This document shows positions 21,769 to 57,524 of a stretch of 64,000 nt of DNA, piece by piece. The stretch lies in assembly GCA_041664365.1 (NCBI GenBank), contig JBAYKW010000004.1:11013-75012 (forward strand). Direction: 5' to 3'. Under the pieces are notes generated by a model, which was not told the DNA's origin, searched no databases, and saw only the letters and a list, made by a program, of their open reading frames with translations. A program made the translations under genes and the position numbers. The number at the start of each line of letters is the position of its first letter. Position 1 is the stretch's first letter. This DNA is from Patescibacteria group bacterium. GTDB taxonomy: Bacteria; Patescibacteriota; Patescibacteriia; UM-FILTER-42-10.

Positions 21769-21774
21769 AATATA

Positions 21775-25122: not shown

Positions 25123-25190
25123 TTTGTAATCGGTAATTGGTAGTTCGTAATTATTTATTTTATTAATTACCAATTACGAGTTACTAATTA
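25123..25190. repeat. Heptad-repeat palindromic intergenic element (copy A), between rpsQ and rplN
   Basis: ggTAATTGgtagttcGTAATTA...TAATTACcAATTACgagttacTAATTAC: inverted arrays of the GTAATT heptad. Confidence 0.6.
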
Positions 25191-25475
25191 CTTATTCTTA
25201 TTAACCACTCTCCATCTTTTGTCCTTTGAAATGGGACGGCATTCAATAAATTCCACAGTATCACCCTTCTTGTATTCGTTTTTTTCGTCATGAACTTTAT
25301 ATTTTCTGGATACAGTGTATTGTTTCTGATATTTTTCATGCGTTTTAACCCGGTCAACACGAACAACGACTGTTTTATCCATGGCATCGCTAACAACAAC
25401 CCCGACAAAATTTCTTTTGCTCGGAAGAGATTTGTTTGTTTCAACCAGTTCTTTTGTTGTAATTTCTTCGTTCAT
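25188..25475 (-). CDS. rpsQ: Ribosomal protein S17
   Basis: [31 protein letters not shown]; the overlapping 25184..25444 ORF is a spurious alternate frame. Confidence 0.85.
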
Positions 25476-32512: not shown

Positions 32513-32863
32513 TTATTCCAGCACAATCGGTTCTAACTTGAAATTTACCTCAGTAGTTCTCAAAGTCTTAACAATTATCTCCTGTTCAGCCGGCTTATAC
32601 CCTTCTGCAATTACACTGATTGTATAAATATCTGGGGCTACTTTCAGCATTAATGGCGTAGTATTACCGACTTCTTCGCCGTCCAAATAGATAACCGCGT
32701 CAACATCATCTGGCTCTACCGAAATCGCAACAACTATTCTCCCGCGCACAATTACTTCATAAAATGATGATTCCTCAACCGTATTTACCTTATAGATCCA
32801 GATAATCATTACACAAAGCACCGAGGAAGCTACCACTAAGAACCATTTGAAGGCATTGGACAT
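32513..32863 (-). CDS. Small membrane-anchored PEGA-domain protein inserted between fusA and tuf
   Basis: N-terminal TM; ..VIYLDGEEVGNTTP..ISVIAEGYKPAEQEIIV matches the PEGA fold pattern. Confidence 0.5.
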   Translation of the reverse strand: MSNAFKWFLVVASSVLCVMIIWIYKVNTVEESSFYEVIVRGRIVVAISVEPDDVDAVIYLDGEEVGNTTPLMLKVAPDIYTISVIAEGYKPAEQEIIVKTLRTTEVNFKLEPIVLE

Positions 32864-34987: not shown

Positions 34988-35068
34988 TTAGTAATTAGTT
35001 ATTGGTAACTGGTAAATGGTAATTCATACTCGTTTACTTATTACAATTTACAAATTACGAGTTAATAA
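34988..35068. repeat. Heptad-repeat palindromic intergenic element (copy B), between rpsG and fusA
   Basis: GTAATTAgttattgGTAACTGGTAAATGGTAATTC...ACAAATTACgagtta. Confidence 0.6.
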
Positions 35069-35072
35069 ATCA

Positions 35073-35537
35073 TTAGGCAAAATGGGCAAAAGCTCGATTG
35101 GCATCAGCCATTCTGTGCACATCTTCTTTCTTCTTAATGGCAGTGCCCTGATTTTCCGATGCTTCCATCAATTCCTGAGCCAGTTTTTCTCGCATCGGTT
35201 TGCCTTTGCGGGACTGTGCTGCACCGATTATCCAGCGGAATGCCAGTGCTTGTCGCCTGTCCCCTTTTACTTCGATCGGGATTTGATAATTAGCACCGCC
35301 GATTCTGCGGGATTTGACCTCAACTACCGGAGAAACATTTTTCATTGCCAGATTAAATATTTCCAGCGGGTCTTTTTTTGTTTTCTCGGCAATTATATCA
35401 AAACAATCATATAAAACACGTTCAGCAACTGATTTTTTACCGCGGGTCATTATCAAATTAATAAATTTAGCAATAACAATACTATTATACTTGAGATCTG
35501 GTTGGATTACGCGTTTTGGTGCTTGCTTGCCTCTCAT
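35073..35537 (-). CDS. rpsG: Ribosomal protein S7
   Basis: Operon position; S7 consensus. Confidence 0.9.
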   Translation of the reverse strand: MRGKQAPKRVIQPDLKYNSIVIAKFINLIMTRGKKSVAERVLYDCFDIIAEKTKKDPLEIFNLAMKNVSPVVEVKSRRIGGANYQIPIEVKGDRRQALAFRWIIGAAQSRKGKPMREKLAQELMEASENQGTAIKKKEDVHRMADANRAFAHFA

Positions 35538-47346: not shown

Positions 47347-47573
47347 TTAGAAATTATTAATATTAACAAAACAGAAGCCCTACCCTTAGGACTAGATAAT
47401 CGCACTGGCTCCGGATAGGAACGTGGGTACCCGCAACTATATTCCACGGAACATAGCGATCTAGGGTTCCCGATGCGATAATCCTGTAGAACCGGATTAA
47501 ACTAGAACCTAATAGTAGAGCAATTTAAGTATACTTTTTGAAATGTGCTTTGGCAAGTCAAAAATATGTTGTA

Positions 47574-47609
47574 ATAAAAAAAGGCCCGTTGCGTTTGCAA
47601 ACGAGGCCT
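47574..47609 (-). terminator. Rho-independent terminator ending the small-ORF island transcript
   Basis: Minus strand aggcctcgtttgcaaacgcaacgggcct followed by ttttttt; 5 nt after the stop of the 65-aa ORF. Confidence 0.5.
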
Positions 47610-47613
47610 TAAG

Positions 47614-47811
47614 TTAGGTCAAATTGGTGCTGTGGTTTTCCCATTCAATTTTGAGGAAGACCATCCCGCATCCCGTATCAGCCAGTTCATACCGGCAATG
47701 ATTCGGTTCCGGATTCACACCCAAAGAACGATCTGTGTCACCAACCACCCTGGTGCTGATTTCCTGTCCGGAGCTTCCGTCCGGAATAGGTTCAGTGCTG
47801 TTGCTTGTCAC
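47614..47811 (-). CDS. Small hypothetical protein (65 aa, GTG start) in the GC-rich island
   Basis: Strong SD AAGGAGG 7 nt before GTG; product VTSNSTEPIPDGSSGQEISTRVVGDTDRSLGVNPEPNHCRYELADTGCGMVFLKIEWENHSTNLT. Confidence 0.45.
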   Translation of the reverse strand: MTSNSTEPIPDGSSGQEISTRVVGDTDRSLGVNPEPNHCRYELADTGCGMVFLKIEWENHSTNLT

Positions 47812-47833
47812 AAAACACCTCCTTGGAAAGAAA

Positions 47834-48019
47834 TCAGTCTTCTTTCTCCTGCTCGTCCTCCGTAGGAGTGTTCGGCAAGCCGGGAATCCCGACAAAATAA
47901 GGCCGATACTTTCTCCTTGGAGTGCTGGTTACAGAGCCATGAAAAGTGGGTTTGATTTCTGCTTGCTTATCGCGGAAATCCGACTCATTCCCATTAGAGG
48001 CATCTTTGTTCTTCGGCAT
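47834..48019 (-). CDS. Small hypothetical Pro/charged-rich protein (61 aa) in the GC-rich island
   Basis: SD GGAGG 8 nt before ATG; MPKNKDASNGNESDFRDKQAEIKPTFHGSVTSTPRRKYRPYFVGIPGLPNTPTEDEQEKED. Confidence 0.5.
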   Translation of the reverse strand: MPKNKDASNGNESDFRDKQAEIKPTFHGSVTSTPRRKYRPYFVGIPGLPNTPTEDEQEKED

Positions 48020-48290
48020 TTCTTACTCCTCCACTTGGTTTAGGGTTGACCGCTAGTGACCCGGGTATAATGTACAATAATCAAAAAAACCATCTTGCCG
48101 ATGGTCTGGATAAATATATTTTAGAAATACACTAATCAGCCATCAGCTCAATGGGTAAAATAACCAAAAAAGAAACTCCAATTGCTGGAAGCAACGGTTT
48201 TTCGGTTATCTGAGCTGAGGTTAATTGAATATTTCATGGGATTATTGGTATGAATAATAACATATCGATTTTTTGTGTCAAATATGGCTG

Positions 48291-48378
48291 AGTAATCCGT
48301 AACTGGTAGACTCGTAATTCGTAAACTGAACTCAGAACTTATTATTTATTACAAATTACTATTTACCAATTACCAAAT
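48291..48378. repeat. Heptad-repeat palindromic intergenic element (copy C)
   Basis: Minus strand GGTAATTGGTAAATAGTAATTTGTAATAA....TTTACGAATTACGAGTCTACCAGTTACGGATTAC. Confidence 0.55.
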
Positions 48379-48433
48379 AAAAAAAGCCCTTGATTACAAG
48401 AATCTCAGGCTGAAAGAGCGATTTGGAAACGGA

Positions 48434-48847
48434 CTACATGTCCATGTGTCCGCCGGGATGATAATCGGGAGTCGCATACTGGACATCACCGATTTCCACA
48501 AAATAGACAATGGGTTTGTCGGGGCAACAGCAGGTGTAGGGGGTCAGCTCGCAGTCAACACACCGAGACTCGCCGTCATTAATGGTCACACCATTGAGGC
48601 AAACCAGCCCAGTGCGCAGTTCTCTCGCCGGACCCCAATTGGGCTCCACCGTGTATCCCCCGCCGGTCATGTCGAACTCGCCAGCGAACTCGATCACATA
48701 AACCTCTGGCATATCCGGGCAACAGCAGTTATTGGGATGCAGACCGCATCCCGCGCACTGGTACTGACCGGTCTCGGTCAGTATAACGCCGTCCGGACAC
48801 CGGATGTCCTGTACCTGGTCAAAGACAGTGGCAGCTTGCGAATCCAT
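48434..48847 (-). CDS. Cys-rich small protein (137 aa) with two tandem copies of a novel C-x2-C-x6-CCC-PD module
   Basis: SD GGAAAGGA before ATG (MDSQ..); modules ..YQCAGCGLHPNNCCCPDMPEVYVIEF.. and ..SRCVDCELTPYTCCCPDKPIVYFVEI..; 11 Cys. Confidence 0.6.
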   Translation of the reverse strand: MDSQAATVFDQVQDIRCPDGVILTETGQYQCAGCGLHPNNCCCPDMPEVYVIEFAGEFDMTGGGYTVEPNWGPARELRTGLVCLNGVTINDGESRCVDCELTPYTCCCPDKPIVYFVEIGDVQYATPDYHPGGHMDM

Positions 48848-48896
48848 GCTGTTCCTTTCCGGTTTGAAACGGTTCTTGTGGTTACATAACGGCAAC

Positions 48897-49064
48897 CTAG
48901 GCAAACAGATCGTTCAGAGTGTCAATACCCGGACAGTGGCAGACGCATAAATCGATCCGCGTCCGGCAGTCCACACAGCGGTACACGCCGTCATCCTCAA
49001 GACGGGCACGACCCTGGCTTCCGTCCTTCTTCTGGAAATCAATTTCCGGCAACTTCTGAGTCAT
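48897..49064 (-). CDS. Cys-rich small protein (55 aa) with a C-x2-C-x6-C-x-C-x-C module
   Basis: SD GGAGG 7 nt before ATG; ATGA stop-start overlap with the upstream ORF; MTQKLPEIDFQKKDGSQGRARLEDDGVYRCVDCRTRIDLCVCHCPGIDTLNDLFA. Confidence 0.55.
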   Translation of the reverse strand: MTQKLPEIDFQKKDGSQGRARLEDDGVYRCVDCRTRIDLCVCHCPGIDTLNDLFA

Positions 49065-49276
49065 CACACATCCTCCATGGAGTTACCAACATCATCTTGG
49101 CTGGTGATTCTCTGACGGGAATCGACTCGACAAACGCAATTGGTCAGAGAGAGTTTGCAGTGTTTACACCTCCATCTCTGGGTGGCAGGATCGAAGTAAG
49201 CCCCAAACGGCGCGTCTGGCTGATGCCCTCCGCTAGAAGCAGAGGGCACGAGGTAATTATGTCCTCTGTAGACCAT
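49064..49276 (-). CDS. Cys-rich small protein (70 aa from the internal ATG) with a C-x2-C-x6-C-x-C module
   Basis: SD-like GGGAAAAGGA before ATG (MVYRGHNY..); ..TQRWRCKHCKLSLTNCVCRVDS..; the track ORF starts at an upstream GTG (49303). Confidence 0.5.
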   Translation of the reverse strand: MVYRGHNYLVPSASSGGHQPDAPFGAYFDPATQRWRCKHCKLSLTNCVCRVDSRQRITSQDDVGNSMEDV

Positions 49277-49540
49277 TCCTTTTCCCTTCAGGTTGAAGTT
49301 CACATCCTGAACTGCGGATATTGTGAATATTGCATCGGGAAATCATTATTCCCATTATCTTAATGTACAAAATCGAGTTTTATGGCTCGTAAAGATACTT
49401 AATAAGCACCCTTACCAACCATCAAACAAAGAACCGGCGAGATGAGGCCGGTTGTAAAATTTTAATACCAAACCTCTCATCAATGGCAGATGATAATCGT
49501 AATCAGTTTAATAATTAGGTTTGATTTGTAGTTCATGGAT

Positions 49541-57475: not shown

Positions 57476-57524
57476 TAATCTATTATTGCCAATTACCTAT
57501 TACAAATTACCAATTACTTATATA
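57476..57524. repeat. Heptad-repeat palindromic intergenic element (copy D), between two pilin genes
   Basis: Minus strand GTAATTGGTAATTTGTAATAGGTAATTGG: four perfect-period 7-nt repeats. Confidence 0.55.

Follow-up and report, generated by a model that had tools for sequence, protein, structure and literature searches.

Arrays of repeated heptamers have been described in the intergenic DNA of several groups of bacteria. In marine Beggiatoaceae, some Cyanobacteria and Bacteroidetes, direct repeats of TAACTGA, which are almost all intergenic and mostly located just upstream of start codons devoid of a ribosome-binding site (including those of fusA and of the genes for L3, S4 and S1), occur in sets of 2–6 copies, often with related variant units between them; BOGUAY contains 169 direct sets and one inverted set (MacGregor 2015, PMC4679880). 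The same study noted the stop codons carried by these repeats in the forward orientation and proposed a translational regulation via a postulated binder (S1, Csp or CsrA). Heterogeneous heptamers of another type, (GGGANTN)n or GGGAATC in Xanthomonas and GGGGA(C/T)T in Nostoc, form arrays that most commonly consist of about four units and are mostly intergenic and mostly transcribed, with 70–75 convergent opposite-strand pairs per Xanthomonas genome that are capable of forming stem-loops (Rehm et al. 2015, PMC4692102); work cited in that paper is quoted there for the over-representation of heptanucleotide simple sequence repeats (SSRs) in bacteria, possibly by polymerase slippage. Finally, a preprint on Nostoc (bioRxiv 10.1101/2022.06.06.494920) reports that heptamer repeats located close to start codons and promoters have effects, and puts forward a binding partner for them. 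Here we analyze four arrays of AT-rich 7-nucleotide (nt) units found in a 64,000-nt stretch, hereafter the window, of a Patescibacteria group bacterium of the lineage UM-FILTER-42-10 (assembly GCA_041664365.1, contig JBAYKW010000004.1, positions 11,013–75,012 of the forward strand), and we show how they compare with these systems.

Four arrays of 7-nt units in intercistronic spacers

The analysis confirms that the window contains a real, non-random family of 7-nt repeats located in intercistronic spacers (sites A to D, Table 1). A pattern of four TTACNNN units at period 7, with at most one mismatch, gave 11 overlapping matches in the window, all of them within the four sites, and not a single match in 100 dinucleotide-preserving shuffles. 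Strict and relaxed scans of the window returned the same four sites, compared to 0–1.2 expected; the relaxed scan revealed no further copy in the window, and none was present in 19 kb of the source contig outside the window, the density of arrays being about one per 20 kb over 83 kb of contig. The distances between TTAC tetranucleotides peak at 7 (17 pairs) and 14 (13 pairs), with only 1–3 pairs at the other distances from 4 to 13, and Tandem Repeats Finder calls a period of 7 at all four sites. A sequence-only reading of the window, which had pointed to arrays of GTAATTN units at four intergenic sites, was right as to their sequence and coordinates. It had also raised the possibility that the motif is simply the commonest AT-rich k-mer: the hexamer GTAATT/AATTAC in fact ranks about 99th among hexamers, with 80 occurrences, 14 of which lie inside the arrays, against about 61 expected. 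The elements are identical across independent assemblies from different samples, indicating that they are not assembly artefacts.

The repeated unit can be written GTAA-Y/W-W-N (GTAAYWN), or N-W-W/R-TTAC on the opposite strand. In a profile of 47 + 41 units, gathered by their GTA/TAC triplet so that positions 1–3 are fixed by construction, position 4 is an A in 42 of 47 units, T prevails over C and A at position 5 and over A at position 6, and position 7 can be any base. At sites A, B and C, the arrays come as convergent pairs, a GTAA-type array facing a TTAC-type array. The inverted partner array is absent at site D, which reads CAATTAC CTATTAC AAATTAC CAATTAC on the + strand (57490–57517), that is, four clean units to which one degenerate unit is added; this array extends from 7 nt after the TAG codon of the upstream pilin-like gene to 13 nt before the following ATG (57469). 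Altogether, the elements at A, B and D span the gap from 0–14 nt past the upstream stop codon to 9–13 nt before the next start codon. The flanking genes are those given by the sequence-only reading, namely the genes for S17 and L14 at A, for S7 and EF-G at B and for N-methyl pilin-like proteins at D (Pfam for L14). The elements differ in length (35–83 nt), in the order of their units and in their loop, and have only the heptamer core in common. Sites A and B do share the 12-mer AATTACGAGTTA, as had been reported, but this 12-mer is not conserved in the orthologues.

The window, part of a 99.7-kb metagenome contig (ENA ERZ27249449, k141_918918), has a GC content of about 40% and tightly packed genes, the majority of which are on the - strand, with about 89% of the window in long open reading frames (ORFs). 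The region from 19 to 36 kb is one long str-S10-spc string of ribosomal-protein genes.

Table 1 Arms, flanking signals and predicted folding of the heptanucleotide arrays, together with GTAA-type hairpin loci found on other contigs (energies in kcal/mol)
Feature	Position (strand)	Sequence or units	Context	Predicted folding
Site A, promoter-distal arm	25126-25153 (mRNA on -)	+ strand: GTAATCG GTAATTG GTAGTTC GTAATTA; mRNA: ...TAATTAC GAACTAC CAATTAC CGATTAC	3' arm in the mRNA; ends 11 nt before the rplN ATG (25114)
Site A, loop	25154-25163 (-)	TTTATTTTAT on + strand
Site A, second arm	25164-25191 (mRNA on -)	+ strand: TAATTAC CAATTAC GAGTTAC TAATTAC; mRNA: GTAATTA GTAACTC GTAATTG GTAATTA	5' arm in the mRNA; first unit holds the rpsQ stop codon (25188-25190)
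Site A, whole element				Hairpin; mRNA (- strand) -14.4, z -3.9; + strand -22.3, z -6.1
Site B, fusA-side arm	34991-35025 (-)	+ strand: GTAATTA GTTATTG GTAACTG GTAAATG GTAATTC	3' arm in the mRNA; end 9 nt before the fusA ATG (34981)
Site B, rpsG-side arm	35031-35065 (-)	+ strand: CGTTTAC TTATTAC AATTTAC AAATTAC GAGTTAA	5' arm in the mRNA; begins 7 nt past the rpsG stop codon (35073-35075)
Site B, whole element				Weak hairpin; mRNA (- strand) -13.6, z -1.3; + strand -21.1, z -2.6
Site C, GTAA-type arm	48292-48327 (-)	+ strand: GTAATCC GTAACTG GTAGACTC GTAATTC GTAAACT; one 8-nt unit	Immediately upstream of the promoter-like site on the - strand
Site C, TTAC-type arm	48346-48373 (-)	+ strand: TTATTAC AAATTAC TATTTAC CAATTAC	Directly after the canonical terminator on the - strand
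Site C, whole element				Hairpin; - strand -28.3, z -3.7; + strand -18.5, z -2.6
Site C, flanking terminator	48379-48410 (-)	GCCTGAGATTCTTGTAATCAAGGGCTTTTTTT	Intrinsic-terminator-like hairpin and U run, 3' of the Cys-rich gene 48434-48904
Site C, flanking promoter	48254-48281 (-)	TTGACA-16-TG-TATTAT	Promoter-like, 11/12 matches
29-aa ORF	48237-48148 (-)	MKYSINLSS...	Downstream of the site C promoter
Terminator after the 29-aa ORF	48107-48087 (-)
Site D, single-arm array	57483-57517 (-)	mRNA sense: GTAATTG GTAATTT GTAATAG GTAATTG GCAATAA
Site D, whole element				Unstructured; mRNA (- strand) -4.3, z +0.6; + strand 0, z +0.8 (z range +0.2 to +0.8)
GTAA-type hairpin, contig L196	7194-7255
GTAA-type hairpin, contig L196	10702-10768
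GTAA-type hairpin, contig L211	2107-2171
GTAA-type hairpin, contig L200	2054-2106

Positional conservation and turnover in related species

The nearest named relatives of the source organism, as judged by L2, are metagenome-assembled genomes (MAGs) labelled 'Patescibacteria group' (91% and 85% identity), and its NDK is 80% identical to that of a Candidatus Kerfeldbacteria MAG. The comparison was made via the rpsQ and ndk neighborhoods of about six related species (sequences labelled L003, L004, L092, L094, L097, L100, L306 and others). The fusA products of these relatives are 90–95% identical to that of the window, compared to an identity of only 0.38–0.42 at the four-fold degenerate sites of fusA, which means that neutral sites are near saturation. 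The positions of sites A, B and C are conserved across sister species; the units and loops turn over while the GTAA/TTAC cores persist. Despite the divergence at fusA, the cores match at 174/176 aligned positions compared to 123/170 for the other arm positions, the former figure being inflated by the core-to-core alignment of periodic sequences.

At site A, an array is present in the window and in L092, L094 and L097, with differing unit sequences. L094 and L097 have one extra unit per arm (5+5 instead of the 4+4 of the window), both arms thus changing together, and L004 displays a degenerate GTAACTA...AGTTAC hairpin; the corresponding spacer of L100 is 11 nt long and contains no element. At site B, the window, L092 and L094/L003 have full elements whose loops, of about 10, 34 and 43 nt, are unrelated; only a start-proximal (3'-arm) remnant is found in L097, and the 29-nt spacer of L100 and L004 contains ATAATCA TTAATCA, i.e. 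(TAATCAN)x2, which resembles a two-unit seed. The start-proximal AATAACTAATTACTAACAAAAC-ATG of site B is kept wherever the element exists. In a more distant Kerfeldbacteria MAG (CG08; L311 18113-18235), the S7-fusA spacer holds a different heptamer array, (ATAATTT)x5, and this spacer therefore attracts heptamer arrays with different types of unit in the clade at large. Site C has an orthologue in L306, where the terminator, the promoter and the 29-aa ORF are nearly identical, almost base for base, and where the element itself has diverged (6+4 units instead of 4+5, with a different loop). Site D is absent from all four related genomes examined and is species-specific.

Within a species, the copies are stable: for each of four array-bearing species, two or three independent samples gave identical spacers. 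The strain-to-strain variation in repeat number that the sequence-only reading proposed to look for did not appear, copies from different samples of one species being identical. A phase-variable contingency SSR is likewise not supported, the number of units being the same in the two or three samples of each of these four species.

Two side observations concern the S7-fusA spacer. In L092, L094 (100-175) and L003, the heptamer array is immediately preceded by a tandem duplication of the final ~24 nt of rpsG (CGTGCCTTCGCTCACTTCGCTTGA ... CGTGCCTTCGCTCACTTTGCATAA), and the spacer is 172–174 nt long, compared to 91 nt in the window. In L311, the (ATAATTT)x5 array is followed by a partial GTAATCA GTAACTA...GTTACTT hairpin.

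Stop codons in the arrays

The period of 7 not being a multiple of 3, three GTAA units put a TAA codon in all three frames; the TTAC arm does likewise on the other strand, and a hairpin element contains stops in all six frames. Such arrays cannot sit in coding sequence, and their intergenic location is therefore automatic. The intergenic placement claimed for all four sites is thus correct, but, for this reason, 'four of four' does not constitute independent evidence. In line with this constraint, 0/73 of the metagenome elements described below, among the matches listed, lie inside long open frames, compared to 88% of random segments of the same length.

Folding and transcription signals

The elements had been described as palindromic. 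This holds for sites A, B and C, which can fold into hairpins, and does not hold for site D (Table 1). The stems at A, B and C are weak, imperfect and AU-rich; they are composed of 4–7-bp blocks, with a mismatch about every seventh position, and can form on either strand. Orthologous copies retain the hairpin potential (z -2 to -4). Folding of both strands, for the window and the orthologues alike, revealed no consistent strand preference, such as wobble pairs might confer on the mRNA strand. RNAalifold applied to five site-A orthologues, which are too few and whose periodic alignment is ambiguous, found double changes in 2/13 pairs and a covariation term of +0.64, which carries no usable signal.

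A search of the window with the Rfam 15 covariance models returned two tRNAs only, both at the gathering threshold and at E <= 1, and nothing at the elements. The scan for promoters and terminators was empty at A; at B it gave no terminator, and no promoter-like site over the array. The array at D is overlapped by weak promoter-like matches (9/12) only, and a terminator match is located ~100 nt away, in the downstream gene. Site C is the only one with a real-looking terminator and a strong, real-looking promoter beside it.

Occurrence of the architecture in metagenomes

We scanned IMG/VR and the JGI metagenomes for the pattern (GTAANNN)x3-N5-35-(NNNTTAC)x3, which has 24 specified bases. It matched 9 stretches of IMG/VR viral contigs and at least 120 stretches of JGI metagenomes. 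Among the matches listed, the contigs range from 22 to 70% GC, and full heptamer arrays are plainly recognizable in most cases, for example GTAAATG x4 opposite CATTTAC x4. Of the metagenome elements flanked by genes on both sides (n=66, among the matches listed), 41 lie between co-directional, 20 between convergent and 5 between divergent genes. Typically, one end of these elements coincides with the upstream stop codon or overlaps it, and the other lies 5–30 nt before the next start codon. GTAA-type heptamer hairpins are also found in the ribosomal-protein operon spacers of unrelated lineages (L24|L5, L15|secY and S5|L15) and in the dnaB|recR spacer of a more distant relative belonging to the Candidate Phyla Radiation. 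The sequence-only reading, which regarded such a family as unexpected in a compact genome, overstated the case, since the architecture is common in metagenomes and has been published for other phyla.

Neither the core nor the period is unique to the elements of the window. In viral contigs, the same architecture built on other cores gave 10 matches for GATA and 72 for TGAA, compared to 9 for GTAA. The reverse arrangement TTAC...GTAA gave 2 matches compared to 9, numbers that are too small to interpret. Units of 8 nt gave 7 matches, a frequency close to that of 7-nt units, showing that seven is not unique as a period; 6-nt units gave 2 matches, both coding-looking. Contigs L316-L322 of IMG/VR display inverted pairs of 8-nt tandem units, for instance GTAATTTG x3 facing CAAATTAC x3.

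Possible role and origin of the arrays

The reading that we favor, and to which we give about an even chance, is that these are lineage-specific, heterogeneous heptanucleotide arrays, grown in place, transcribed within operons and probably acting as cis elements between cistrons. The arrays would have short heptamer seeds in the leader as their starting point and would grow in place, units being duplicated and lost via slipped-strand mispairing and copied between arms via hairpin-templated repair. They would be transcribed as part of polycistronic mRNAs, and between cistrons they could serve as a structure melted by ribosomes or as a single-stranded motif present in several copies. Processing, the stability of mRNA segments or initiation at a following cistron without a Shine-Dalgarno site could be tuned in this way, a cis role similar to the one proposed, not demonstrated, for the TAACTGA repeats of Beggiatoaceae (PMC4679880). 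Several points weigh against this reading. Position and analogy are what a cis function of the arrays is argued from. Site D has no hairpin. Sites A and B give more stable folds in antisense, which speaks against selection for a stable mRNA stem, and site C, located between a terminator and a promoter, may be barely transcribed. Moreover, the arrays are absent in some relatives without visible consequence, and the heptamer spacers are more variable than the neighboring operon spacers (0.48–0.76 compared to 0.76–0.93 identity for the same genome pairs).

Two other explanations address the same data. According to one, which we consider rather unlikely, the arrays are a neutral by-product, units of 7–8 nt being spread by replication slippage and hairpin-templated template switching and surviving, functionless, in spacers where they are harmless. 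This would fit with their necessarily non-coding location, with the heptamer spacers being the most variable spacers of the operon, with the variation in presence or absence among sister species (site D existing in this species only), with the occurrence of the architecture with arbitrary cores and at all GC contents, and with polymerase slippage, to which heptamer over-representation is attributed in the work quoted in PMC4692102. However, the units are uniform at positions 1–4 and heterogeneous at positions 5–7, a pattern that slippage and decay should not give without selection; the number of units is invariant between samples of the same species and, at site A, changes jointly in both arms; and the arrays at A and B persist across lineages whose four-fold sites are near saturation. 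According to the other explanation, also unlikely in our view, the arrays are protein-binding platforms, a GTAA/UUAC core every 7 nt being recognized on RNA or duplex DNA and the hairpin being secondary. Consecutive units would be read by a binder, ring-shaped or composed of several domains, that controls initiation or processing at the downstream cistron, by analogy with HutP and TRAP, which read (UAGNNNN)x3 and spaced (G/U)AG triplets, respectively. The likeness, which is one of mechanism only, lies in a short conserved core that recurs in an mRNA leader at short, constant intervals (7 nt for HutP), the spacer bases being free; the core here is GUAA/UUAC, not UAG, and no HutP- or TRAP-like gene was identified. 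The position-specific conservation of the units points to such a platform (A at position 4 in 42/47 units, G1, T2 and A3 having been used for their selection, with variable positions 5–7), as does the fact that the cores persist between species in which ~60% of the four-fold degenerate sites differ. Besides, neighboring units are rarely identical, and recent slippage therefore does not explain their regularity; site D is a clean array of 4–5 units, without a hairpin, 13 nt upstream of a start codon; and a heptamer-binding factor is postulated in both MacGregor 2015 (PMC4679880) and the Nostoc preprint. On the other hand, no candidate protein was identified, the conserved cores can also be explained by a pairing tolerant of register shifts between the arms, and the arrays are dispensable in close relatives. 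Similar arrays with many cores and with 8-nt units exist on unrelated contigs, which makes one dedicated binder per core seem unlikely. A bolder version, which we hold to be distinctly improbable, is that the GUAA/UUAC cores are the recognition code of a dedicated nucleic-acid-binding factor (perhaps an RNA binder with a ring shape or several domains, or else the ribosome or S1) that organizes termination-reinitiation or mRNA processing in lineages poor in Shine-Dalgarno sites; if true, the wide occurrence of 7–8-nt inverted arrays abutting stop codons would reflect a general, undescribed intercistronic control and not slippage debris. The data do not separate a cis element, a binding platform and neutrality, and the two functional options offered by the sequence-only reading, an RNA element or a protein-binding array, remain live.

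By contrast, the resemblance of the elements to repetitive extragenic palindromic (REP) elements or MITEs (miniature inverted-repeat transposable elements), suggested by the sequence-only reading, does not withstand comparison. In enterobacteria, REP elements and the bacterial interspersed mosaic elements (BIMEs) that they form are near-identical copies of a ~35-nt consensus with a conserved 5' tetranucleotide, mobilized by RAYT transposases; they are transcribed and can stabilize upstream mRNA segments. As in the window, they are imperfect palindromes located in intercistronic or 3' operon regions, and mRNA stabilization is a plausible way of working for the arrays as well. The inverted arms, the dispersed intergenic sites and the 12-mer shared by A and B would also suit a palindrome mobilized by a trans-acting transposase. 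However, the elements of the window consist of 7-nt units and vary in length, in loop and in the order of their units, without common termini, fixed length or full-length consensus and without any sign of mobility. When filled orthologous spacers are compared with empty or short ones (L100, L004 and L097), no target-site duplication or clean insertion boundary is seen, and seeds and remnants are found instead; A, B and C, three sites out of four, have orthologous counterparts across species and look gradually grown from seeds, and the shared 12-mer is not conserved in the orthologues. A blastn-short search found no second copy of the element loops in ~250 kb of clade sequence, and the precomputed Pfam tables for ~60 kb of the contig list no transposase or RAYT-type domain. 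We therefore find mobile DNA scarcely credible here, and the labels REP and MITE should be avoided when such elements are annotated. It is also very unlikely that the arrays act as terminators or attenuators of transcription within the operons. The hairpins immediately after stop codons, and the 20 convergent compared to 5 divergent contexts of the metagenome elements among the matches listed, would agree with termination, but the stems, rich in A and U, are mismatched at regular intervals and lack a U tract, and the scan places no terminator-like site over the array of A, B or D. Besides, canonical terminators with a GC stem and a U run exist in the window, one of them directly beside site C, and A and B, which immediately precede rplN and fusA, are internal to essential ribosomal-protein operons. 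As intrinsic terminators, the arrays are excluded by their sequence and context.

If functional, the arrays would constitute a compact cis element setting the relative expression of neighboring genes in long operons, and would matter most in organisms largely devoid of Shine-Dalgarno sites. In the window, any Shine-Dalgarno-like motif (<=20 nt upstream) precedes only 14/68 of the longer ORFs, the leaders being A/T-rich. The arrays, if functional, would also help to approach an old puzzle, namely why heptanucleotide repeats are in excess in the intergenic DNA of bacteria. For functional tests, the clade provides a comparison set that is small and tractable, the same spacer having 5+5 units, 4+4 units, a remnant or nothing in sister species.

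Other features of the region

Several features of the window stand apart from the arrays. Next to site C, small Cys-rich ORFs containing CxxC and CCCP motifs are clustered at 48434-49303 (-); one of them, of 156 aa, has a 74%-identical homologue in the sister species (L306 11106-11519) and belongs to no Pfam family. On the other side, a GC-richer stretch at 47560-48090 (-) contains two small ORFs, one of 61 aa (48019-47834) and one of ~65 aa with a GTG near 47813 as its start. Unlike most genes here, the two have a strong Shine-Dalgarno site upstream (GGAGGAG, AAGGAGGTG); the stretch closes with a canonical terminator near 47600-47565 and has no Rfam match. Within the ribosomal-protein gene string, the L30 gene is absent between those of S5 and L15, which are separated by a 6-nt spacer (21769-21774). 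Finally, an ORF of 116 aa with a PEGA domain lies between fusA and tuf in the str operon (32513-32863, -) and keeps this position in every relative examined.

Relation to known heptanucleotide repeats

Cyanobacterial short tandemly repeated repetitive (STRR) sequences reportedly include heptanucleotides, and heptamer-built stem-loops are said to occur in nif intergenic regions (work of Mazel in 1990, Jackman and Mulligan in 1995 and Elhai in 2008). They resemble the arrays of the window in being tandem 7-nt units in operon spacers, 'highly variable but structured' and near start codons or promoters; they differ in unit sequence and phylum, and belong to large, repeat-rich genomes, whereas the genome considered here is a streamlined one of the ~1-Mb class.

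The TAACTGA repeats share with the arrays of the window a 7-nt unit that contains TAA and places stops in all sense frames, an intergenic location and a presence in ribosomal-protein operons, including upstream of fusA. With TAACTGA, the window units (G)TAACTG and (G)TAATTG agree at 5–6 of 7 positions, as do TAACTAA/TTACTAA of the sense strand. The units of the window, GTAATTN, GTAACTN or GTAAWWN, are never exactly TAACTGA, the best phases, TAACTGG and TAACTAA, reaching 6 of 7. Three of the four sites are convergent inverted pairs forming hairpins, in contrast to the direct sets of BOGUAY. As to placement, site D fits, with a sense GTAATTN array that ends 13 nt before an ATG without a clear Shine-Dalgarno site, whereas the start-adjacent arm at A and B is in the reverse (TTAC) orientation. 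Finally, the host belongs to Patescibacteria, a lineage not reported in the MacGregor 2015 survey (PMC4679880).

With the (GGGANTN)n arrays of Xanthomonas, the similarity lies in the combination of conserved core positions with variable ones and in the inverted pairs, which predominate here too. Those repeats are G-rich, form quadruplexes and come from a high-GC host, whereas the window unit is AT-rich, without quadruplex potential, and contains stop codons, which (GGGANTN)n does not. Altogether, the elements of the window display head-to-tail 7-nt units, a conserved core, an orthologous context with variation and, at three of four sites, convergent pairs, which are the features of the published heptanucleotide-array class. 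They are thus best read as an AT-rich addition, in a new phylum, to this class of little-understood repeats.

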